From: a virus
Length of the DNA stretch: 49,789 nucleotides
IMG/VR virus record: IMGVR_UViG_3300017987_000024
Coordinates: 1-49,789 of that record
Direction: 5' to 3' (one strand)
The notes under the pieces were generated by a model. That model did no database searches, was not told where the DNA came from, and saw only the letters and a program-made list of their open reading frames with translations. This document shows, in pieces, positions 1-49,789 of this stretch (positions within the stretch are counted from its first letter, which is position 1; each line of letters starts with the position of its first letter). Both the position numbers and the translations under genes were made by a program.

Positions 1-123
1 GCACTTTCACGGGTGCCGGATCAGCGGCTTCCCCCTACGGGTATACCCGCCCATTTAGTATCAGTTGAAAATCTGTATGGCCCCGGCAGGACTCGAACCT
101 GCAACGCTCAGATAGACAGATTA
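1..123. repeat. Terminal direct repeat, left copy (identical to 49667-49789)
   Basis: Base-by-base comparison: the first 123 nt equal the last 123 nt. The repeat starts at base 1 and ends at the last base. Confidence 0.95.
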
Positions 124-217
124 TTTATCCTGGAGGACCTATGGCCACTCGTGCCCTTACTAGCCAGTGTTTTCAAATCCGTCCGTCGGAGGCGTCTGCC
201 GATTCCGCCACGGGGCC
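78..217 (-). tRNA. Interrupted tRNA-like gene (140 nt) with 73 nt where the anticodon loop should be
   Basis: Minus-strand read: acceptor GGCCCCG/CGGGGCC plus discriminator A. D-arm TGGCGGAATCGGCAGACGC is Leu-like. Anticodon stem is TCCGA/TCTGA (4 of 5 pairs), variable loop GCGTT, T-arm GCAGG-TTCGAGT-CCTGC. A 13-bp closing inverted repeat joins 73-85 and 211-223. No canonical 7-nt anticodon loop was found. Confidence 0.5.
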
Positions 218-527
218 ATACAGAGGGTGAGCGGTTGAAAATGTGCGGCGGGCCGGGCGCTACTCCGGCGATGCGTTTTTATTGCATATGGCTCGCCGAT
301 TTCCACGGCCACCCGACAAGGGCTTTGGTCTATGGCCAACCAGTGCAGGCCACTCCTGCTCGCGGTGCGTGTCTGCTTTCCACGCCGCCGACGCACATAA
401 GGGTGATGGTCAAATAGTGAGGCCGGGCGTCCGTGCCCGACCCCTGAAACAGCCTTCGTGCATAACCCCCACAGTTGCGCACGAAAGTGAATTTAGGTTT
501 TGCTTTTCTGAGCCTCGGTTTGTACAC

Positions 528-573
528 TCGGTTTCCTAAACCGAAGGTTGCAGGTTCGAGTCCTGCCGGGCGT
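528..573 (+). other. tRNA-Arg(CCT)-like 3' fragment, candidate attP core
   Basis: TCGGT-TTCCTAA-ACCGA (anticodon CCT), variable loop AGGTT, T-arm GCAGG-TTCGAGT-CCTGC, then CGGGCGT-A. There is no matching 5' acceptor or D-arm upstream. It abuts the stop codon of the integrase gene. Confidence 0.6.
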
Positions 574-574
574 A

Positions 575-1621
575 TTAGAGGCCAATTTTATTGACCTCTT
601 GCCGCGCCGACCGGAAACACTCTTCGAGGTCGACGCCAATGTAATGGCGTCGTGTTGTTTCGGCGGATGCGTGTCTGAGGATGGTCCGAACCTCAACTTC
701 GGGCCGTCCTCTTTTTGCTAACCACGTCCCGAGGGACTTACGCAACTGGTGGTAATCGCCGTGCTCGATAAGCGTCGCGTTCGGATCGTCCAACCACCGC
801 TGACGATTCGTCGCCCGTAGAATCCGGTTGAACTCCCGGCTCCAGTTGTACACCGGGCAGTCCCGGATCTTTTCCGGCAACGGCCATGGTCGGCTCATCA
901 GATCGTCGAGCCGACACTTCATCAGGAACGGATATGGCCAGGGCCGCACTTGCTTGAGGCGGAACATCGTCTGCCATAGGCCGTCCGACATCGGGACCTC
1001 ACCTTCGTGCTTGCCCTTGCTCTGCCATTCCCAATACTCACCGGGCTTATCGTCGCGGTGGCGGACCAGGACACGACCGCCGTCGAGATCGACGTCTCGC
1101 CACCGGAGGTTCAGGACCTCGCCTTTGCGAAGGCCGCACACCGCCGCCAACTGAATGGCCGCATACCACGCCAGCGTCTTCGTCGGGTCGCGCCACGTCA
1201 ACGTGCCCGCCGTCGCCAGGATCTCCTTGGCCTCAGACTCGGTGTAATACCGAATCGCCTTGTCATCGACCTTGGCGGCATCAGCGTCGCAAAACGGATT
1301 GGCCCTCAGCCCGTACTCATTGCTGCCGTCGGCTTCTCGCTGGCGTATCGCCCAGCCAAATACCTGGGCGGCGGCACCGACGGTCGTCTTGATCGTCCAG
1401 GGCCTCAGACCGGGCCGTCTGGTCCGCGGATTGATTGCCCGTGTCGCCAGCCACGTCATCCACTTGTTGATACGCCCTGGCCCTAATTGGGCCACTGGTA
1501 CGTCACCCGCAAATGCGACGAGATGGCGAAAAGCACTGCGAGCCTTGGCCTTCGTGCAGCCCTTGACGCTTTGAAACATCTCATACTCTTGATACAGTTG
1601 TGATAGAGTCACGTCACTCAT
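575..1621 (-). CDS. int: Tyrosine integrase
   Basis: ORF 575..1690 trimmed to the ATG at 1621, which is preceded by AAGGAGG. Motifs: GLRKGEVLNLRWRDV (box I Arg) and LRHASAETTRRHY (H-x-x-R...Y). Confidence 0.9.
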   Translation of the reverse strand: MSDVTLSQLYQEYEMFQSVKGCTKAKARSAFRHLVAFAGDVPVAQLGPGRINKWMTWLATRAINPRTRRPGLRPWTIKTTVGAAAQVFGWAIRQREADGSNEYGLRANPFCDADAAKVDDKAIRYYTESEAKEILATAGTLTWRDPTKTLAWYAAIQLAAVCGLRKGEVLNLRWRDVDLDGGRVLVRHRDDKPGEYWEWQSKGKHEGEVPMSDGLWQTMFRLKQVRPWPYPFLMKCRLDDLMSRPWPLPEKIRDCPVYNWSREFNRILRATNRQRWLDDPNATLIEHGDYHQLRKSLGTWLAKRGRPEVEVRTILRHASAETTRRHYIGVDLEECFRSARQEVNKIGL

Positions 1622-1750
1622 GTCAGTCCTCCTTTCTTTCGACGCAACTGTGGGGTCTGACCCCACAGCGTAGCCGAAATCAGGGTTCACATCAAGTTCG
1701 GTGCTCTATCCTACTTCGCTATGGACTTGTCAAAGTGCGGGCCACCGGCC

Positions 1751-8347: not shown

Positions 8348-10479
8348 CGGCTTGCACCTCGTCGTCCGCGCCGTCTAGCCGCGCGGCGTTTCTTGGGTTT
8401 GGCTTCGTAGGTCTGGAGGCCCATCCCGAACACGCTCAGAAGGCCAAGGGCGGTCCCGGCCGGCACGCCTTGATCCTTCATGGCTTCGTAAATATCATCA
8501 AAGGCCAACGGTGTCGGTGCTTCGAGGGCCGCCCGGCCAAGAGTCATGGGCTCGCCGACCACGTTTTGTCCCGAGAGCACGTCCATCGGAATCCCGAACG
8601 TGGGCGACAGCTTCCCGCGCAGGAACCTCGCCACCACCTCTGCGGACGTGTCGCCGCCGTAGGGAACATCCTCGCCCCGGATCGGTCGCACGGTCCCGGT
8701 AGTGCTGCTCTTCGTCTCTCCGGTAATCAGCCTTGCCAACAGCACCGTCACTTGCGAGATTCCTGAGAACACGTCGATCCGGCTATTGCCAAAGCGGACC
8801 TTGCCGGCGTCGGCCGATCGCAGATCGTCTTCAATCTCGCCCCCGGCCGCATAGCCCAACGCCAGGACGGCCCCTACCCCTATCAGGTATCGGGCGTACT
8901 CCTGGGCCACGAGCTTCCGCACGGCATTGCTGCCGCCCCGCTTGCCGCCTTGGGTCGTCTTGGCCCACAACGGATGGCCCAGCAGAAGTTGGAACCGACT
9001 GACGGTGTACTTCGGCGCGAAAAAGACAGTGTTGAGCCCCACTGCCGCCTGTTCGATACCGATGGACCCTCTGCCGGTCGCTTCGTTGACGAACGTCGCG
9101 ATAGCCATGGCCTCGTCGGCCGTCGGTTCCCCGTTCTGGGTCAGTGTTGCCGCCATCGTGTCGAACGAATCGGCCCGCAAGGCGTTCAGGAAGGTCAGAT
9201 ATGCCCGCTCAGAAGCCTCTACGCCCTTGAACACCGTACTGAGTATGGGAATGTTCGATCGGGCACCCCGCTCGATCAGGTGCGACATATACGCCTCTTC
9301 CATCCGCACCAGTCGCTCGCTCCCGTCGATGGGGGCAATGTAGAGCTTGCTCCGGGCATAGAGAGGGGCGTTCGGGCGGTTCAGGATCTCGCTATTGATT
9401 CGCGACGACGCCTCTTCGGAGACCAGGGCCCGCATCATATCAGGCAAGGCCCGGGCGGCACGCACCGGATGGGCCAGGCCAATGAAGCCCCCTTGCCGAA
9501 AGACGGCCGACAGGTCGAAACTGGTCTTCAGGGCCCGAATCGCATTGAAGGGCTCGGCGATGTGATACCAGATCGTTTTCGGCTTCAACTCCATCATGCC
9601 CACGCGAACATCCCGACGCAGTCGGTTCCGCTGATAGATCAGCTTCTCCAGTGCCTTGCTCTGGGGCAGGGGCGTTTTCTTGGCCTTCGGAGCGAAGTCG
9701 CCCGCCTTGATCCGGGCCTCCAGGTCGGCAATACTCTTTTCCAGCCGCTGCTTCCGAGCCGGATCGCTCTGCGATACTTGCCGCCGCAGGTCGTCGCGAA
9801 TCTCGCGCAGGGCGTCCACAGGCCCGAAGCCCTTGGCCTTCTTCCTCTTCGCCGCGGGCAGCGTCCCCGCCTCCAGATGCTGCTGGAGTGCGTTGACTTC
9901 GTCCATGACCCGCTTGACGGCCTTGGCGTCCTTGATATGCTTGCGGGCGATATTGATTTGGTCCTGGAGGCCCTGGAGCGAATCGTGCAGTTTCGCCTCC
10001 TGGATACGGTCCATGACGATCTCGCCCGATTCGATCTGGGCGTCCAGTGCGTCCAGGCGGCCCTGCAACGACTCTCTCATCTTCGGGTCGGCCGTATTGA
10101 GCCAACTTCGAAGTTTTCTACTGGTCTTGCGAAGCTGCTCGACGCTCTCGGGCCCGATCTCGCGGGGCTCCGGCGCGTCCGGGGGCTTGCCTTCCTCCAG
10201 ATACTGCTCCACCTGCTCGATCTTCTCTCGCAGGCGGCTATGGCTGCGGGCTTCACGCTTGATGCGGGCCAGCTTCTGGGCCAGGTCGTCCAACTCCTTC
10301 GCCTCATTGGTGGAGGCGTCCACGATCGCATCGACAATGGCGTTGGCGTCCATGACGGGGAAGCTCTTTTGGATCTCGCCCACCACCTCGTCAATGTTCT
10401 TGACGTCCGGGTCCTCTGCGATATTCAGCGACAACTGGTAGATGGCCAGGGCGAGTTCGGAGCAGTCTTTCTTAGGCAT
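8344..10479 (-). CDS. Internal virion or ejection-like protein (711 aa)
   Basis: Assigned by position between the nozzle and fibre genes. The N-terminal half has four ~45-aa coiled-coil repeats (L..LE.G..). The C-terminal part is Gly/Ala-rich and hydrophobic. It overlaps its neighbours by 4 and 8 nt. Confidence 0.75.
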   Translation of the reverse strand: MPKKDCSELALAIYQLSLNIAEDPDVKNIDEVVGEIQKSFPVMDANAIVDAIVDASTNEAKELDDLAQKLARIKREARSHSRLREKIEQVEQYLEEGKPPDAPEPREIGPESVEQLRKTSRKLRSWLNTADPKMRESLQGRLDALDAQIESGEIVMDRIQEAKLHDSLQGLQDQINIARKHIKDAKAVKRVMDEVNALQQHLEAGTLPAAKRKKAKGFGPVDALREIRDDLRRQVSQSDPARKQRLEKSIADLEARIKAGDFAPKAKKTPLPQSKALEKLIYQRNRLRRDVRVGMMELKPKTIWYHIAEPFNAIRALKTSFDLSAVFRQGGFIGLAHPVRAARALPDMMRALVSEEASSRINSEILNRPNAPLYARSKLYIAPIDGSERLVRMEEAYMSHLIERGARSNIPILSTVFKGVEASERAYLTFLNALRADSFDTMAATLTQNGEPTADEAMAIATFVNEATGRGSIGIEQAAVGLNTVFFAPKYTVSRFQLLLGHPLWAKTTQGGKRGGSNAVRKLVAQEYARYLIGVGAVLALGYAAGGEIEDDLRSADAGKVRFGNSRIDVFSGISQVTVLLARLITGETKSSTTGTVRPIRGEDVPYGGDTSAEVVARFLRGKLSPTFGIPMDVLSGQNVVGEPMTLGRAALEAPTPLAFDDIYEAMKDQGVPAGTALGLLSVFGMGLQTYEAKPKKRRAARRRGRRGASR

Positions 10480-34784: not shown

Positions 34785-35171
34785 ATGAGAATTGAACCAT
34801 GCAAGCCGCCCGTTGGCTATTACCACTACTCCAACCCCGCGTCTCAGGGGGCCTTGATGGCCAAGACGACCAAGTGGCCAAAAGGCCATCTTCCTGACGG
34901 ATGCGGAATCCTGGACGCATACACAGACCGAATGTGGGAATGGGATCAAGACAAGGCCAAGCGAGCCAGCGAAGCGCTGGGGGCACGATCCTTCAAGGAT
35001 GCCAGCGACGAGCAATTGCTGGCCTTCTCACGCGTCTGGTGGCCGGACTATGAGATTGTGGCCGTGCGCGTGGTGCATTATTACAACGTTGCGACGGGCT
35101 ACAGTTGCCCCCGCGTAGACGTCATCTACAAAGACGTCTCTCTCCCCGAGAATGGCGCCGACAATGGCTGA
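34785..35171 (+). CDS. Hypothetical 128-aa protein
   Basis: ORF 34662..35171 trimmed to the ATG at 34785 after GGGAGAA. Confidence 0.6.
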   Translation: MRIEPCKPPVGYYHYSNPASQGALMAKTTKWPKGHLPDGCGILDAYTDRMWEWDQDKAKRASEALGARSFKDASDEQLLAFSRVWWPDYEIVAVRVVHYYNVATGYSCPRVDVIYKDVSLPENGADNG

Positions 35172-35943
35172 CAAAACCGCCCTCAAAACGAACGAATGGC
35201 TACGGCAGCGCGAAGTCGACGAACTGCTGCGATACATCCGCAAGCGAACCAAGAGCGCCAAAGCCTCGCGCCGCAGTCACACGCGCCGACTGATTATCGA
35301 GATCGGGCTGTTCGCGGGCCTCAGAGCGTCCGAGATCCGCGGACTGAACATCAAGCACTTACCGCTAGCCAACGGCACGCTGGCCCTCCAGGTCATCGCC
35401 GGCAAAAGGAACAAGGACCGGCTGGTTCCGGTATCGAGGGAGCTGGCGCAACTGATCTGGCACTACGTGGTGGAGATCCGCCAGCTACTACCGCCTGTCC
35501 CCGAGGAAATCGAGCCCATTATCTGGCCGTATCTGGCCGAGGATGAGGACACCCTGGCCACACTCAGCAACCGGCAGGGGCGTCTGATCGGTGACTATCT
35601 GGCCTGCGTGCGCACCGCCGGGCCCAGCGTCGCAGACGCGCCCCTGCTGGTCTCGGAGATCGGCAACCGGATCGATCGCCATACGATATGGTCGTCCGTC
35701 ATGCTCACGGGCGTGGCGATCGGCTACGAGCGAGCGGTCGGTAAGCGCCCCGAGAACTCCGACCGCAACGCGCTCTATCCCCACCGCCTCCGCCACACGT
35801 GCGCCATGCGAATGGCGATAGCCGGTAAACACATCACCGAGATCCAGGGCTATCTCGGCCACTCCCAGATCGCGATGACCGCTCGCTACACGGCCACGTC
35901 TCAGCGCCACCTGTCGAAGACGGCGCAGGAGATGCACTGTTGA
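35152..35943 (+). CDS. Second tyrosine recombinase (XerC/D-like, 263 aa)
   Basis: FAGLRASEIRGLNIKHL (box I) and HRLRHTCAMRMA...GYLGHSQIAMTARYT (H-x-x-R...H...Y). An alternative start is at 35164. Confidence 0.85.
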   Translation: MAPTMADKTALKTNEWLRQREVDELLRYIRKRTKSAKASRRSHTRRLIIEIGLFAGLRASEIRGLNIKHLPLANGTLALQVIAGKRNKDRLVPVSRELAQLIWHYVVEIRQLLPPVPEEIEPIIWPYLAEDEDTLATLSNRQGRLIGDYLACVRTAGPSVADAPLLVSEIGNRIDRHTIWSSVMLTGVAIGYERAVGKRPENSDRNALYPHRLRHTCAMRMAIAGKHITEIQGYLGHSQIAMTARYTATSQRHLSKTAQEMHC

Positions 35944-39265: not shown

Positions 39266-40129
39266 CTACGTGAATAACCCCTGCTGGCCGCTGCGGTCGT
39301 TGGTCAACAGGACTTCGATCGCCTTGGTGTTGTTCGTGCCCCGCCGTCCTTGATGGGCCAGGGCCTTGGACACGTCGATCTTGTGCTTCGTCCAGCCCGG
39401 ATACAGCTCGGCCAGTTGCTCGTGCTCGTAGTAACTGACGACGACGCGGGCCTGCTTGAATCGGTCTAGGGCGGCCGCGAGACGCACGTGGTCTTCAGGC
39501 TCGAAGTCGTGGACGTATTTGAACCCCTTCTCAAAATAGGGCGGATCACAATAGATGGCGGTCCCGGCCTTATCCTCGATTCGTTCGGCCACCTCAAATA
39601 TGTCTCGGCGAAGAATGGTGACATTGAGCAAGCGATAGTGCCAAGCCGGAATGCTCTCGACCACGGACCGCCATCGCTTGGCGGCGTGGCCCCCGTTGGC
39701 CGTGTAGCGCACGCAAAAGCCGTATTTGGAATTACGAGCACCTGCAACCCCATTGCGACCCAGCCATGAAGCCAAGAGGTAATCGAACGCCCTCTCAACA
39801 TGTGGAATATCACTCTCTGCGGTTCGGTGTTCGAGTAGCCGCTGCCTTGCGTCAGCGAACAGTTCATCTGACATCAGCGTCCGGGCCGCCCTACCGTAGA
39901 GATCAATCGCCATGTCCTCGTCCTGCAAGACAAAGGCCAGATTCGTCATGTCCCCGTGCAGGTCCACGGCGGTCTCCATGACGCACGGCTCCTTGGCCAG
40001 CAGGACCGCCAGCGACCCGGCGCACAGCTCCCAATAGACCCGATGTTTGCCGAGCTGCTCGATGATCTTCCCCGCCAGGTTGCGCTTGGCCCCGGCCCAC
40101 GGTGCGATCGCCTTGATCTTCATTGTCAT
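39266..40129 (-). CDS. dam: DNA adenine methyltransferase (Dam/D12 class)
   Basis: N-terminal APWAGAKRNLAGKI and the catalytic YCDPPYFEKG motif. Confidence 0.9.
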   Translation of the reverse strand: MTMKIKAIAPWAGAKRNLAGKIIEQLGKHRVYWELCAGSLAVLLAKEPCVMETAVDLHGDMTNLAFVLQDEDMAIDLYGRAARTLMSDELFADARQRLLEHRTAESDIPHVERAFDYLLASWLGRNGVAGARNSKYGFCVRYTANGGHAAKRWRSVVESIPAWHYRLLNVTILRRDIFEVAERIEDKAGTAIYCDPPYFEKGFKYVHDFEPEDHVRLAAALDRFKQARVVVSYYEHEQLAELYPGWTKHKIDVSKALAHQGRRGTNNTKAIEVLLTNDRSGQQGLFT

Positions 40130-40323
40130 TCGGCCCCCACGTAGATGCGCCCGGAATGCTCCGTCTCCGGCGAGACCGGGCCTTGCGACTCGCGATAGTC
40201 TTGATGTGCCTTCTGCCGCTGCCTCGGCGTCAAGACCGGCGGTGCGGGCGGCTCGACCACCGGGGGCACGCAGCCGGCCAGCAGCAGCAGGATCAGGAGC
40301 AGCCAGTTTCGTTTACGTTTCAT
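40126..40323 (-). CDS. Small lipoprotein (65 aa)
   Basis: MKRKRNWLLLILLLLAGC lipobox followed by a Pro-rich stretch. ATGA overlaps with both methyltransferase genes. Confidence 0.65.
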   Translation of the reverse strand: MKRKRNWLLLILLLLAGCVPPVVEPPAPPVLTPRQRQKAHQDYRESQGPVSPETEHSGRIYVGAE

Positions 40324-41003
40324 CGGTTATCCTTTCGCTTGAGTACCGTCAGTAATTCCCTGCCGATGTACTCGGTGTAGGCGGGGGGAATTGCCTGGGC
40401 GATTTCAGCTCTTGTCATCCAGGGCACCCCCATGGCAATTCGCCCAGATCGAGCCTGAAAGTTGTGCCCGGCGCAAGTAATGTATGGCGACTTGTCCAAG
40501 GCGTGATACTCGCCCTTGGACTTGCCCATTCGATGGGTATGATTACAAGGCCCTGGTGGTTTGATCTTGAAACCATGGCACTCGAACAGGCGATGGCGAT
40601 AGACCTTTAGCTCTGGGAACATCGTTCCGCACAAAATGATATAGTCCTGTAGCGGCGCACCTGGGACGTTCTCCATGACGAAGGGACGTTTTGTTGCAGC
40701 CAATCGTGCGCGTGTTGCCGCAACATAATCTGGGTGCTCTTTTTTCCAGGGCTGCCCATTGTGAATATTCGTTGCCACGCTATATTTTTGACACGGCGGG
40801 CTGGCGTGGAAGGCGTCGAAGTGCGGCCCCAAAACAGCAAGGGCTTCAAAGGCGTCCTTCTCGTAGAACTCAAACGGGTAGTTCGGTTGAGGCTTGTTGT
40901 CAACGCCGACAACTTCAAACCCGGCGCGATGGTAGCCCATGGCCGCACCGCCAGCACCACAAAACAGATCAAGCAACCTTGGGGGCTTCAACATCGTCCT
41001 CAC
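40320..41003 (-). CDS. Short DNA cytosine-5 methyltransferase (227 aa)
   Basis: Motif I DLFCGAGG, motif IV SPPCQKYS, motif VI FVMENVPG and C-terminal AQAIPPAYTEYIG. The target-recognition region is very short. An alternative start is the ATG at 40994. Confidence 0.85.
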   Translation of the reverse strand: MRTMLKPPRLLDLFCGAGGAAMGYHRAGFEVVGVDNKPQPNYPFEFYEKDAFEALAVLGPHFDAFHASPPCQKYSVATNIHNGQPWKKEHPDYVAATRARLAATKRPFVMENVPGAPLQDYIILCGTMFPELKVYRHRLFECHGFKIKPPGPCNHTHRMGKSKGEYHALDKSPYITCAGHNFQARSGRIAMGVPWMTRAEIAQAIPPAYTEYIGRELLTVLKRKDNR

Positions 41004-41064: not shown

Positions 41065-41208
41065 CTAGTCGGCCTTGCGCGGCCCTTGGAGCCCGCAGGT
41101 CATGCAGGCCACGAAATACTCGTCGTTTGCCCCGTCGTACGTCGCGACCACATCATGCCCCGCGCCGTTCGGGCAGGCCGCCGGTTCTGTGTTCTGCTTC
41201 CTCGCCAT
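41065..41208 (-). CDS. Lar-like zinc-ribbon small ORF (47 aa) ending at an in-frame TAG; not in the ORF track
   Basis: My own translation gives MARKQNTEPAACPNGAGHDVVATYDGANDEYFVACMTCGLQGPRKAD*. The same frame continues KQAKTAWAKRQN... to 40969. Confidence 0.4.
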   Translation of the reverse strand: MARKQNTEPAACPNGAGHDVVATYDGANDEYFVACMTCGLQGPRKAD

Positions 41209-41557
41209 CTTCTATCACGCCTCCGGGCCTATCACCTTTGCTGCGAACATGTTCAATCGCCTTTCCGTCTCCCAGGTCGGGCCCCCAGTCGCGGTCGCGG
41301 TTGATCCTCGCTTTGCGGGCCAATGCGTTACATATCTGTCGCGGTGTGTAGCCGCACCGCCATGCCCCATCAAGAGCCAGTATCACCACATCGGCCCATT
41401 CATAGAGGTCCTCTGGATTATCAGCGATCTCCACCAGCTCCTTCTTGATGTGGTCGATGAGCCCTGCGGTTCGCGGGCCTTTGCCAAACGTCTTCGCCGA
41501 CCATTGAATCTGCTCTAAAATGTAAGTCTCAAGGTTGAATCTCATTGTTCCCGCCAC
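41153..41557 (-). CDS. DUF550/MazG-like dNTP pyrophosphohydrolase
   Basis: WSAKTFG...GLIDHIKKELVEI...EWADVVILALDGAWRCGY...KARINRDRDW pattern. The GTG at 41557 lies 9 nt after GGAGG. An alternative ATG is at 41545. Confidence 0.7.
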   Translation of the reverse strand: MAGTMRFNLETYILEQIQWSAKTFGKGPRTAGLIDHIKKELVEIADNPEDLYEWADVVILALDGAWRCGYTPRQICNALARKARINRDRDWGPDLGDGKAIEHVRSKGDRPGGVIEDGEEAEHRTGGLPERRGA

Positions 41558-41578
41558 GGTCTCAGTCCTCCATTCGTC

Positions 41579-41650
41579 TGAAAATGGCCGGGCGCGGCCC
41601 CGTTGAATGAGTTCGGCATGTAGCACTCATTTCGGCCGCGCTCGGCCCGG
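41579..41650 (-). terminator. GC-rich compound hairpin plus U-tract in the operon leader
   Basis: Minus strand: CCGGGCCGAGCGCGGCC pairs with GGCCGCGCCCGGCC (8+5 bp). It encloses ATGAGT/ACTCAT and is followed by ATTTTCAG. Confidence 0.45.
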
Positions 41651-45374: not shown

Positions 45375-46340
45375 CTATTCTGGGTTTCCGCACACGCCAA
45401 ACACCTTGTCTACGATCGTACACAGGTAGGGCATGGTCACATTGAAGTCCGGGTCTTCCCCTTGCCGCTTCCTGCAATAGTCGATGATCTCAATGAAATA
45501 GGCGGCATCGACCCCGGTCAACTGCTCCTGGAGAACGTCCACGTCGGCAAGGTTCAGTTCGCTAATCTGGAAACACATCTTCAGGAATTGCCCCGCATTG
45601 ATGTGCCATCCCCGCTTGAGGAACTTCCGCGTCCGAATGACCGAGCATAGCGGATATAGCGACCCGACGTAGAACAGTTCGCGGGCGACGATGCTCTCCA
45701 CTGCGGCTGGACGCAGGACGAGCTTATTGTCCCATGCCGTCCAGTAGTTGGTGCAGTGGACGAAGTCGTAGTTCTTGTGGACTTCTTCCGGCTCGCCATA
45801 GAAGCGAATCACCAGTTGCACCTTGTTGGACAGCGTGATCGCGTTGTCGGACAGGAACACGGGCCGGTATGCGGGCTTGTCGGAATCGTTGTCGTCCTCC
45901 TTGACCGTGACGTCCGATGCCGCCTCTGTCAGCCGCTCGACATAGCTTTGTCCTTCCCCTTCGGGGCGAGTCTCAAAATACTCATAGTTCGCGTCCGTCG
46001 CCTCCGACGTTATCCCGGCGCTCTGAATCCAAATCCGAATCCGGCCATCGTCCACGCCGTCCACGTTGGCCCCATCTACGACCTCTGGCTTGATATCGTG
46101 CTCTGGGTTGAGGCGATTGAATTCGGCCACGTAGTAGTTCGCCACCGCCTTGACGGTGGCCTTGTCGCGAAAGTAGTAGTCAAAGTCCTTGATCGGCTCA
46201 CCACAGAGCAAACTGACGATGGACCCGCCGGTAATCATGGCGTTCTCCTTCACCATCGCTCGCACGGCCGGATCGGTGATCGACGCGCAGAACTCCTTGT
46301 GCTTCTTTTCCAGTATCTTCTTGATAATGCGACGGTTCAT
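45375..46340 (-). CDS. Pol-beta-type nucleotidyltransferase-fold protein (321 aa)
   Basis: ITGGSIVSLLCGEPIKDFDYYF fits G[GS]-x(9-13)-DxD, and a later NYDFVHC offers a third acidic residue. Confidence 0.55.
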   Translation of the reverse strand: MNRRIIKKILEKKHKEFCASITDPAVRAMVKENAMITGGSIVSLLCGEPIKDFDYYFRDKATVKAVANYYVAEFNRLNPEHDIKPEVVDGANVDGVDDGRIRIWIQSAGITSEATDANYEYFETRPEGEGQSYVERLTEAASDVTVKEDDNDSDKPAYRPVFLSDNAITLSNKVQLVIRFYGEPEEVHKNYDFVHCTNYWTAWDNKLVLRPAAVESIVARELFYVGSLYPLCSVIRTRKFLKRGWHINAGQFLKMCFQISELNLADVDVLQEQLTGVDAAYFIEIIDYCRKRQGEDPDFNVTMPYLCTIVDKVFGVCGNPE

Positions 46341-48446: not shown

Positions 48447-48728
48447 TCATCCTATCTCCAGCCTGCGCAGGCGAGCCAAGACACCCTCATGCAGGTTGTT
48501 GATCTCGCGAACGCGGTCGCGCAGGGCCAGGGTGATTGAACTCTCGCCGGCCAAATCCGTCCTCGGCGTTTGCGGGGACGCCACCTCCGGCACCACGGGC
48601 GAACTACAGCCATCCAGCCTGCCGTGTAAATCGCTAATCGATGCATTGAGTCGATCGATCGCCGAGTTCAGTTGGCCCATGGCGTTGAGCACCGGGGGTT
48701 CCTGTCCGCAACATGCTTGATCGTTCAT
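48447..48728 (-). CDS. Hypothetical coiled-coil 93-aa protein
   Basis: ORF 48447..49127 trimmed to the ATG at 48728 after AGGAGA. The longer form would run through the tRNA-like gene. Confidence 0.55.
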   Translation of the reverse strand: MNDQACCGQEPPVLNAMGQLNSAIDRLNASISDLHGRLDGCSSPVVPEVASPQTPRTDLAGESSITLALRDRVREINNLHEGVLARLRRLEIG

Positions 48729-48962
48729 TGTGTTTCTCCTGATTTGAGTGGTTATCATAAAAGTCAGGCCCTCCGTGGCCTTTCGCCCCAGCCACCTGGG
48801 CCGGGCATCCTCGGGGCACAACCCCTTGAAAGGAACAGCTATGAGTCTGGATTCTGGGAGTCTGAGGTTAAAAGGTGGGGCTGGGGCCGGGAGTGTAACA
48901 CGCACCTTCCGACCCCGCCCCATAAAGCCGCGCCCCGGCGTACCGTAAGGCGGATAGCGGAG

Positions 48963-49073
48963 GACCCCTATGGGATTTGAACCCGACGGCGAGACTGTCC
49001 TACCAGAACAGCGGCCGTCTACATGACTTCCAGCTTTCCAGGCTGGCGCTCTACCTGACTGAGCTAAGGGGCA
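48963..49073 (-). tRNA. tRNA-like gene, anticodon GGA, class-I body with a 38-nt hairpin insertion in the T-stem
   Basis: Minus strand: TGCCCCT-TA-GCTC-AGTCAGGTA-GAGC-G-CCAGC-CTGGAAA-GCTGG-AAGTC-ATG[38 nt]GG-TTCAAAT-CCCAT-AGGGGTC. The insertion (48984-49021) folds as GACGGC..CTGT-loop-ACAG..GCCGTC. Confidence 0.55.
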
Positions 49074-49208: not shown

Positions 49209-49421
49209 TCACAGGCAGGTTAGAGCGACCTGCTCCATCTTCTGAGCCAGTCGTTTTACAGCCATCTCCTTGCCTATTCGCAAGGCATCCTGGAAACATC
49301 TATTCATCCGATTTTCAAAATGCTGCTGTTGATCGGCGGGGGCTTTGAGGGTCGTCACGTCAAGCGTGTCCTGGTTCTTCTTCGCCCACCCGTCCCAAGC
49401 TATGGCTTCTTCACATTTCAT
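49209..49421 (-). CDS. Hypothetical 70-aa protein, first gene of the early leftward block
   Basis: ORF trimmed to the ATG at 49421 after GGAGAA. Confidence 0.55.
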   Translation of the reverse strand: MKCEEAIAWDGWAKKNQDTLDVTTLKAPADQQQHFENRMNRCFQDALRIGKEMAVKRLAQKMEQVALTCL

Positions 49422-49594
49422 TGGAATTCTCCAAAGGAGGCGAGCGCCTCGGTGCCGAGGGGAAGCGATTCCCGCGAGGCGGTCGCAGAGGGTCAAAACA
49501 AGGCCCGGCTATCTGGCGACGTCGGCAGGTGAGCGCAACACGCTCATCGAGCGAATCCAATAGCAAGTGGGTACGTACGCACCGGGCCTGGGTG

Positions 49595-49618
49595 TTTGGT
49601 ATTGGGTATTTGGTATTG
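49595..49618 (+). repeat. Direct repeat tttggtattg, 2 copies, in an AT-rich patch
   Basis: Copies at 49595-49604 and 49609-49618, close to the terminal repeat. Confidence 0.7.
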
Positions 49619-49666
49619 ATGATGGCTGATAAGAAAAATGGCGAGGGCGGGAACCCGCTACCGGTC

Positions 49667-49789
49667 GCACTTTCACGGGTGCCGGATCAGCGGCTTCCCC
49701 CTACGGGTATACCCGCCCATTTAGTATCAGTTGAAAATCTGTATGGCCCCGGCAGGACTCGAACCTGCAACGCTCAGATAGACAGATTA
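49667..49789. repeat. Terminal direct repeat, right copy
   Basis: Identical to 1-123. Confidence 0.95.

Follow-up and report, generated by a model that had tools for sequence, protein, structure and literature searches.

A class I tRNA gene of a Planctomycetota phage is interrupted in its T-stem by a 38-nt hairpin

What has become of a tRNA gene that is complete in every arm, except that one strand of its T-stem is broken by a hairpin of 38 nt? The question is raised by a locus on the minus strand of the IMG/VR virus record IMGVR_UViG_3300017987_000024, which was analysed over its whole length of 49,789 nt (referred to here as the window). The locus, which we call gene C, has a class I tRNA body with the anticodon GGA. 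An earlier note, made from the sequence alone, had offered a spliced or processed tRNA and a decayed gene among its explanations. In our analysis, damage or a change of purpose, rather than splicing, is the most likely account of this tRNA. The explanation that we put forward, with confidence a little short of even, is that a class I tRNA gene of a phage acquired, by insertion at the DNA level, a short palindrome resembling a repetitive extragenic palindrome (REP), and that its RNA retains the additional arm and probably does not decode normally. The coordinates of the features are collected in Table 1.

Gene C is a real tRNA gene body, beyond chance. When the whole window was searched against all 4227 Rfam families, the minus strand from 49073 to 48962 gave an end-to-end match to the tRNA model (RF00005, model positions 1-71) of 37.2 bits, against a gathering score of 29, with E = 2.7e-4. 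The acceptor UGCCCCU/AGGGGUC forms six of its seven pairs, with a U1.C72 mismatch and a G2.U71 wobble, and U8, A14 and G26 are in place. The D-arm is GCUC-AGUCAGGUA-GAGC, an ordinary 4-bp stem with a 9-nt loop that includes G18G19, while the anticodon arm CCAGC-CUGGAAA-GCUGG has a perfect stem and a canonical loop. The variable loop is AAGUC (5 nt), and the T-stem AUG|GG pairs with CCCAU around the T-loop UUCAAAU. The nucleotides of the tertiary pairs are complete (U8-A14, G15-C48, G18-U55, G19-C56, U54-A58 and G53-C61), and U33 is also kept. The elements listed in the earlier note (U8 and A14, D-arm, anticodon arm, variable loop, T-loop and a 6-bp acceptor) are each present on direct reading. 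Its location for the gene was right as well, although the end that it gave, 48963, misses the discriminator C at 48962.

As encoded, gene C does not contain a contiguous 7/4/5/5 cloverleaf, since 38 nt interrupt the 5' strand of the T-stem. ARAGORN, which the earlier note had suggested as a check, calls no tRNA here by default with the insert present, and calls a clean 7/4/5/5 cloverleaf once the insert has been deleted. Its relaxed modes gave mainly false positives and were discarded as evidence. It also tolerates nearly any deletion of 34-41 nt in gene C, and is thus of no use for fixing the insert boundary. The same sequence was found in independent JGI and Logan assemblies, so gene C is not an assembly artefact. 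The silence of ARAGORN in default mode could be taken to mean that gene C is no tRNA gene and merely resembles one by chance. This is in effect already refuted, given that the Rfam score exceeds the gathering threshold, that all the invariant tRNA nucleotides are kept, and that the flanks of the insert, when rejoined, rebuild a natural tRNA 24-mer; we give it next to no weight.

The 24-mer also locates the insertion. Rejoining the flanks gives GGAAGTCATG|GGTTCAAATCCCAT, which is not found as contiguous sequence in the window, and which occurs uninterrupted in 29 genomes and three viral contigs. ARAGORN calls a tRNA across 27 of these 32 loci, and in all 27 the match is the variable loop and T-arm of a class I tRNA. 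The tRNAs concerned are His, Val, Pro, Thr or Met, and one of them, a Kiritimatiellia tRNA-Pro(UGG), also has G26 and the whole anticodon stem in common with gene C. Since the rejoined junction is natural contiguous tRNA sequence, the 38 nt are a derived insertion, and since the 24-mer is natural in class I tRNAs, what has been split, between positions 51 and 52, is a canonical class I T-stem AUGGG/CCCAU. The insertion amounts to exactly 38 nt, and sliding its boundary by one G leaves the product unchanged. The placement at 48984-49021 proposed in the earlier note, splitting the 5' strand as ATG/GG, is thus borne out by the natural 24-mer. The Rfam alignment, by comparison, puts extra bases in the variable region and bulges the T-stem. 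A long variable arm of this kind was considered and rejected, because the rejoined flanks are a natural class I variable loop and T-arm, and the T-stem placement is the better of the two.

No precedent for such an insertion was found. Searches of the literature and databases turned up no short structured insert inside a T-stem, in agreement with the earlier note, which had known of none at this position, and a gapped search for any insert at this T-arm site gave six hits, all due to chance. To our knowledge, the established interruptions of tRNA genes in bacteria and phages are confined to group I introns in the anticodon loop. The nearest natural precedent for the site is the single bulged base at 51a that natural 8/4 tRNA-Sec and tRNA-Cys tolerate (PMC5389517, PMC7609411), an extra nucleotide at the exact position in the T-stem where gene C is interrupted. 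Gene C itself was not found in any relative in GenBank phages, IMG/VR, JGI metagenome patterns, homologs of the neighbouring proteins or nine integrase relatives, and there are no presence/absence alleles of the insert, the assemblies being identical. With only chance hits at the site and no relative that carries the gene, the insertion event is lineage-specific. Because no relative carries gene C, the comparison with related phages for compensatory changes in the hairpin that was proposed in the earlier note had nothing to work on.

The insert folds alone (-20 kcal/mol, z = -2.5) into a hairpin with a 6-bp outer stem, GACGGC/GCCGUC, and an inner stem, GCUGUUCU/AGGACAGU, with two G.U pairs. 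The earlier note had recognised the separate stem-loop and its outer stem, but gave the inner stem as 4 bp, whereas it has 8. The predicted hairpin is 5 kcal/mol stabler on the tRNA-sense strand than on the antisense strand.

The next question is whether the insert is removed from the RNA, for which the host is important. The attP (phage attachment site) core consists of the 3' part of a tRNA-Arg(CCU), and the matching tRNA-Arg(CCU) sequence occurs almost only in Planctomycetota (Sedimentisphaerales, Phycisphaerae and Pirellulales); the host is therefore a bacterium of this phylum. In integrated copies, integrase homologs (52-69% identity) adjoin tRNA-Arg(CCU) genes that are complete; one such copy is in a Sedimentisphaerales genome. 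A very lenient scan for bulge-helix-bulge (BHB) motifs, including relaxed hBH forms, gave 26 chance motifs along the precursor, none of which cleaves at the insert boundaries. Rfam at E <= 10 reported no family other than tRNA at gene C, and hence no ribozyme or group I intron; the insert has 38 nt, compared with about 200 nt or more for a group I intron. Pfam and PHROGs searches of the phage proteins found no RNA ligase, RtcB, splicing endonuclease or homing endonuclease, and in the literature no report was found of short introns in phage or Planctomycetota tRNAs. As the host is bacterial, no BHB fits the boundaries, and neither a ribozyme or group I intron nor a ligase or splicing enzyme of the phage was found, splicing of gene C is unsupported, and with it the spliced or processed tRNA of the earlier note.

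There are nevertheless points in favour of removal. Exact excision of the insert produces a perfect cloverleaf, there is a 1-nt repeat at the insert boundary, and ARAGORN calls an intron also in gene A, an oversized tRNA-like gene nearby (see below). The 38 nt could accordingly be a new short tRNA intron or processed spacer, removed at the RNA level by host enzymes to give a normal 74-nt tRNA, for example if a double-strand-specific RNase cut the arm and an RtcB-type ligase rejoined the ends. Besides the results just described, however, a spliced gene C would still carry an anticodon without a matching class I identity, and members of the gene A family are not rescued by any single excision. 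We consider this explanation improbable. The closest known system would be the archaeal non-canonical BHB introns, which are likewise short inserts away from the anticodon whose exact removal restores the cloverleaf. Gene C differs from them in its bacterial host, in having no fitting BHB or relaxed BHB, and in that no splicing endonuclease is in evidence.

If the insert is not removed, could gene C decode serine codons? GGA is a serine anticodon, and the earlier note was correct that it is odd on a class I body. Judged against published identity rules (PMC9976931), gene C has the serine anticodon, C72, C11-G24 and G30-C40, but fails on G73, G2-C71 and R4-Y69, having C73, G2.U71 and C4-G69. 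Nor does it have a class II variable arm: the variable loop is 5 nt, and the extra arm enters after position 51, not between 44 and 48. The encoded G-1 can pair with C73 as in bacterial tRNA-His, but the anticodon is GGA and not the GUG of tRNA-His. No coherent aminoacylation identity can be seen in the sequence. A codon-usage rationale for a tRNA-Ser(GGA) was rejected, as UCC and UCU together make up just 26% of the serine codons of the phage. An allo-tRNA of 8/4 or 9/3 type was also rejected: in those registers the acceptor pairs at only 6/8 or 6/9 positions, and the D-arm has a 4-bp stem and a 9-nt loop.

The large variable arm, not the anticodon, counts most for serine identity (PMC9976931). 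The hairpin might on this basis act as a surrogate long variable arm, allowing seryl-tRNA synthetase to charge a class I-derived GGA body as a makeshift tRNA-Ser. The Rfam model can indeed place the insert in the variable region, the serine elements just listed are present, and genuine archaeal tRNA-Ser(GGA) genes have an identical anticodon arm. This reading is nonetheless rather hard to accept, and slightly harder than removal by host enzymes. The discriminator and the 2-71 and 4-69 pairs are wrong for serine; the arm leaves the interior of the T-stem, of which 3 bp would remain; at 14 bp and 38 nt it far exceeds natural variable arms; the allo-tRNA geometries do not fit; and UCC and UCU are minor among the serine codons. 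Class II tRNA-Ser and allo-tRNAs (PMC5389517, PMC7609411) do resemble gene C in combining a serine anticodon with a long extra arm, and irregular tRNAs of the allo-tRNA sort occur in phages, as gene C does. Gene C is unlike them in that the addition is a 38-nt arm instead of 1 nt and lies outside the variable region, the D-arm is ordinary, the discriminator is C and not G or U, and the 8/4 and 9/3 geometries fail.

The anticodon arm is the subject of a separate observation. The 23-mer at 49030-49052 (minus strand), comprising the D-stem 3' strand and the anticodon arm, is identical in genuine class II tRNA-Ser(GGA) genes. Of the 23 genome contigs with a match, 21 are from Bathyarchaeia/Bathyarchaeota archaea, and there was no bacterial tRNA among those examined. 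The identity is probably due to convergence on a palindromic stem. An archaeal virus with an archaeal-type intron, which this match had suggested, was rejected in view of the Planctomycetota attP tRNA-Arg(CCU), the bacterial phage relatives and the lack of a fitting BHB.

Folding predictions were then considered for an RNA that retains the insert. The nearest-neighbour model disfavours the split T-stem (-38.2 vs -45.0 kcal/mol, pair probability ~0.001), and predicts a 3-bp GGG/CCC T-stem beside a 14-bp arm. The contacts of EF-Tu with the T-stem lie at about positions 49-53 and 63-65, so its binding should be hindered by a large arm at this point. With a T-stem predicted at 3 bp and an arm at the expected EF-Tu contact, the RNA of gene C is most likely crippled.

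Gene C otherwise looks like other phage class I tRNA genes, with canonical acceptor, D, anticodon and T elements, an intergenic position in the early region and no encoded CCA. Its body is nearest to natural His, Thr, Pro and Val tRNAs with the same variable loop and T-arm. It stands apart from phage class I tRNAs in the 38-nt hairpin in the T-stem, the anticodon GGA of a class II family and the 1-72 mismatch. The U1.C72 mismatch, the G2.U71 wobble, an anticodon used by no class I tRNA and the low share of UCC and UCU codons are signs of relaxed constraint.

Where might the insert have come from? Because of the sliding boundary it can also be read from 49022 to 48985, as GTAG followed by ACGGCC...GGCCGT and C, in full GTAG-ACGGCCGCUGUUCUGGUAGGACAGUCUCGCCGU-C. 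In this register it is a 38-bp imperfect palindrome with a terminal GTAG, the form in which GTAG-tagged REPs are defined (PMC3733652). These elements measure 20-40 bp and bear GTAG at one end; G.T pairs are frequent, the stems have 6-13 bp, and the loops are complex and paired internally. They are thought to be mobilised by REP-associated tyrosine transposases (RAYTs), and have been reported in Planctomycetes and in the Planctomycetes-Verrucomicrobia-Chlamydiae superphylum, sometimes inside genes (PMC3733652). The likeness of the gene C insert to them extends to GTAG at one end, a 6-bp outer stem, an internally paired loop, G.T pairs and the absence of a target-site duplication. It is unlike them in that a single copy was found, whereas REPs are defined by high copy number, and PMC3733652 reports no REP in a tRNA gene or in a phage. 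As statistical evidence, the REP-like form alone is weak. A REP origin is a reasonable candidate rather than a demonstrated source.

Another possible source is the tRNA itself. The segment from D-stem to T-stem could have been partially duplicated in tandem, by replication slippage at the microhomology AGUCA(G/U)GUAGA, and then have diverged into a hairpin. The junction AGUCAUGUAGACGGCC resembles the D-arm AGUCAGGUAGAGCGCC, and GGACAGUC resembles GGAAGUC; with the seven preceding bases included, the alignment has p ~0.013. The test window was picked post hoc, however, and the insert alone compared with the upstream exon gives p = 0.34. The rest is about 50% identical and would need long divergence while the tRNA stayed perfect. 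Post hoc similarities of this kind point only weakly to a duplication, which we think improbable.

The sequence of events that we favour is as follows. Gene C would originally have been a normal class I tRNA gene of a temperate Planctomycetota podophage, located in the stretch of variable cargo that separates attP from the early genes. A 38-bp imperfect palindrome would then have entered the T-stem 5' strand at the DNA level, between 51 and 52 and with no target duplication; its source may have been a GTAG-tagged REP-type element or, alternatively, a hairpin arising from a replication error. Nothing would remove the insert, and gene C would be transcribed with the adjoining early genes, the transcript ending at the downstream hairpin. 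The RNA would retain the 14-bp extra arm, with the T-stem predicted to drop to 3 bp. Jutting out at the expected EF-Tu contact, the arm would leave a crippled tRNA that decodes barely or not at all, either a young pseudogene or a tRNA-like RNA.

The alternative is that the arm is useful, and here gene A, which like gene C lies in the region near the integrase and attP, must be considered. ARAGORN in intron mode reads gene A as a tRNA-Asp(GUC) with a 66-nt intron. Its anticodon stem runs on into a long helix with a 48-nt apical domain, which replaces the anticodon loop, and neither in gene A nor in its family does any single excision give a canonical tRNA or anticodon arm. Relatives were found on the IMG/VR contigs L127 (47.9 bits) and L132 (two copies). 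They have the same acceptor stem, Leu-type D-arm and T-arm as gene A, with middles that are different and oversized, and they adjoin an integrase or an IS110-type transposase fragment. A phage with a 61% identical integrase (L029) has a 91-nt tRNA-like gene at 8718-8808, with the anticodon CGC and a 19-nt variable arm, while the related phages L135 and L083 are without such oversized tRNA-like genes. Because this cargo differs among related phages, the oversized tRNA-like genes are sporadic, variable cargo of the region near the integrase and attP. A hairpin element common to the inserts of gene A, the adjacent element B, gene C and the L029 gene was not significant.

Some further features of these genes may be recorded. 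The acceptor stem of gene A is lengthened to 14 bp by leader-trailer pairing, and the gene is flanked by near-identical 12-nt direct repeats CA(C/G)ATTTTCAAC. A perfect 24-nt inverted repeat links 82-105 (minus), in the gene A T-arm and 3' acceptor, with 547-570 in the attP tRNA-Arg core, 441 nt apart (L024 8958-8981 and 8493-8516). On L132 (5678-6632), one gene-A-like gene lies 75 nt downstream of a 261-aa open reading frame (ORF) with only the C-terminal IS110/IS116/IS902 transposase domain. The L029 gene has A3-U70 in place of G3.U70, its D and anticodon stems are separated by three bases, and its T-loop, UCCGAGU, is unusual. Element B (49637-49719, minus), right after gene A, consists of two hairpins, closed by AAUGG/CCAUU, with a U-run behind them. 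It was rejected as a tRNA, the likeness (GGGCGGG...CCCGCCCUCGCCA) being superficial only, and is possibly a terminator.

Several observations weigh against the accidental insertion of a REP-like palindrome. The insert occurs only once in the window, and neither 0.9 Mb of sequence including about 50 Planctomycetota loci nor IMG/VR yielded another copy, the host's own genome being outside the search. Chance alone makes GTAG with a stem of 6 bp or more frequent in the window (27 observed vs 16.5 +/- 3.9). The universally conserved tRNA nucleotides are all intact, which speaks against a long period of neutral decay and would fit a function. The calculated advantage of the tRNA-sense strand, which comes through the two G.U pairs, is what would be expected if RNA structure matters. 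Finally, the gene A family nearby suggests a raised chance that such chimeras are maintained for a purpose. The decayed gene of the earlier note is plausible and close to our preferred explanation.

The last three of these observations fit a different reading, in which the insert is retained and functional, and gene C is a natural tRNA-scaffolded RNA that displays the hairpin as a decoy, sponge or regulator. The tRNA body would provide RNase P/RNase Z processing and stability, and the hairpin might act against an RNA-binding protein or against the nucleases of tRNA-targeting defences, a decoy for which was also among the suggestions of the earlier note. At 0.7 kb from gene C, gene A is a member of a phage family that recurs; its acceptor/D/T top half is conserved, and its structured expansions vary and do not allow splicing to a tRNA. 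Gene C is surrounded by early genes, and their module includes a Gad2-like anti-defence gene. tRNA scaffolds are in use for expressing recombinant RNA. Engineered tRNAs tolerate inserted hairpin aptamers (PMC7590224), and like gene C they join a tRNA body to a foreign structured hairpin. Gene A and its relatives swap the anticodon loop for a variable structured domain, as engineered scaffolds do. Those scaffolds are artificial, however, and gene C has its hairpin in the T-stem rather than in the variable arm or the anticodon arm. Gene C moreover has no homolog and so gives no sign of selection on the hairpin, for which there is no known target or binding partner; its insert has no sequence in common with the gene A expansion, and the insertion site differs from that of the gene A family. 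A functional scaffold is hence unlikely in our estimation, although less so than a spliced or a makeshift serine tRNA.

The significance of the locus depends on which explanation holds. If the RNA of gene C is stable, it would show how much additional structure the tRNA core can bear at 51/52, and nature would have an equivalent of the engineered aptamer-tagged tRNAs. Splicing of the insert would mean a new bacterial tRNA-processing route. If it is of REP type, it would be a rare record of a REP in a phage structural RNA gene, marking prophage residence in a REP-bearing Planctomycetota host. The boldest proposal is that Planctomycetota phages keep tRNA bodies as scaffolds for structured domains (the T-stem hairpin of gene C and the expanded anticodon arms of the gene A family), the chimeras being stable, processed RNAs that serve as decoys or regulators, or else that the 38 nt are the first short tRNA intron in a bacterial system to be protein-spliced or RNase-processed; we would give this roughly one chance in five. 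Genes with conserved top and variable bottom halves beside integrases may be a more general lead than gene C.

Table 1. Positions of gene C, its parts and the surrounding features in the window
Feature	Position	Strand	Basis
Gene C, interrupted class I tRNA gene, anticodon GGA	48962..49073	minus	Rfam RF00005; ARAGORN after insert removal; tertiary nucleotides
Anticodon GGA of gene C	49039..49037	minus	Direct reading
Discriminator C of gene C	48962	minus	Direct reading
Encoded G-1, can pair with C73 as in bacterial tRNA-His	49074	minus	Direct reading; ARAGORN draws the pair; rule from PMC9976931
T-stem 5' strand, part one (AUG, positions 49-51)	49022..49024	minus	Direct reading; contiguous with GG in natural tRNAs
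38-nt insertion in T-stem 5' strand, between positions 51 and 52	48984..49021	minus	Rejoined flanks are a natural tRNA 24-mer
T-stem 5' strand, part two (GG), T-loop UUCAAAU and T-stem 3' strand CCCAU	48970..48983	minus	Direct reading; Rfam alignment
Rejoined T-stem junction ...AAGUCAUG|GGUUCAAAU...; contiguous (insertion-free) form GGAAGTCATGGGTTCAAATCCCATAGGGGTCC			
Palindrome form of the insert, GTAGACGGCCGC...GCCGTC			
Strong GC-rich hairpin followed by CUUUU, terminator-like	48870..48922	minus	RNA fold; ~40 nt downstream of gene C
Downstream 93-aa gene	48447..48728	minus	Gene calls
Upstream 70-aa gene	49209..49421	minus	Called genes in L024
Gene A, 140-nt oversized tRNA-like gene	78..217	minus	Rfam tRNA, 34.0 bits; ~0.7 kb from gene C
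attP core, 3' part of tRNA-Arg(CCU), directly after integrase stop	512..574	plus	Rfam, 27.7 bits
Tyrosine integrase	575..1690	minus	Homologs carry PF00589; gene calls

Two small genes, 480 nt apart, flank gene C, which is about 1.2 kb from attP. The upstream gene has no homologs beyond this phage, and the downstream one has a 61%-identical homolog in a relative without any tRNA there. The terminator-like hairpin is absent from the list given by a simple terminator scan. A tandem 14-nt repeat, CAATACCAAA(T/C)ACC x2, is found at 49591-49618 (minus), in non-coding sequence between element B and the upstream gene.

The window as a whole is a complete circular temperate podophage of Planctomycetota, with a genome of 49,666 bp and a 123-nt terminal direct repeat (1-123 and 49667-49789). 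It had no match in searches of GenBank phages or IMG/VR, and is no more than distantly related to epsilon15/BcepC6B-like podophages. The genes include those for a T7-type head-tail connector, an HK97-fold capsid protein, a small terminase, Erf, exonuclease VIII, RusA, two DNA methylases and the Gad2-like protein. The last has 321 aa (45375-46340, minus), is encoded between exonuclease VIII and Erf, and carries PF26128 (Gad2, Gabija anti-defence family; precomputed annotation) and phrog_4400. The integrase is intact in the window copy and split into two ORFs in the JGI copy. A second short ORF of the tyrosine-recombinase family (263 aa) is located at 35152-35943 (plus), far from attP and on the opposite strand to most genes. 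Precomputed Pfam annotation also places a MazZ-like dATP/dGTP pyrophosphohydrolase domain (PF04447) beside C5 and Dam-type DNA methylases (41153-41626, 40320-41003 and 39266-40129, minus), with no PurZ seen.

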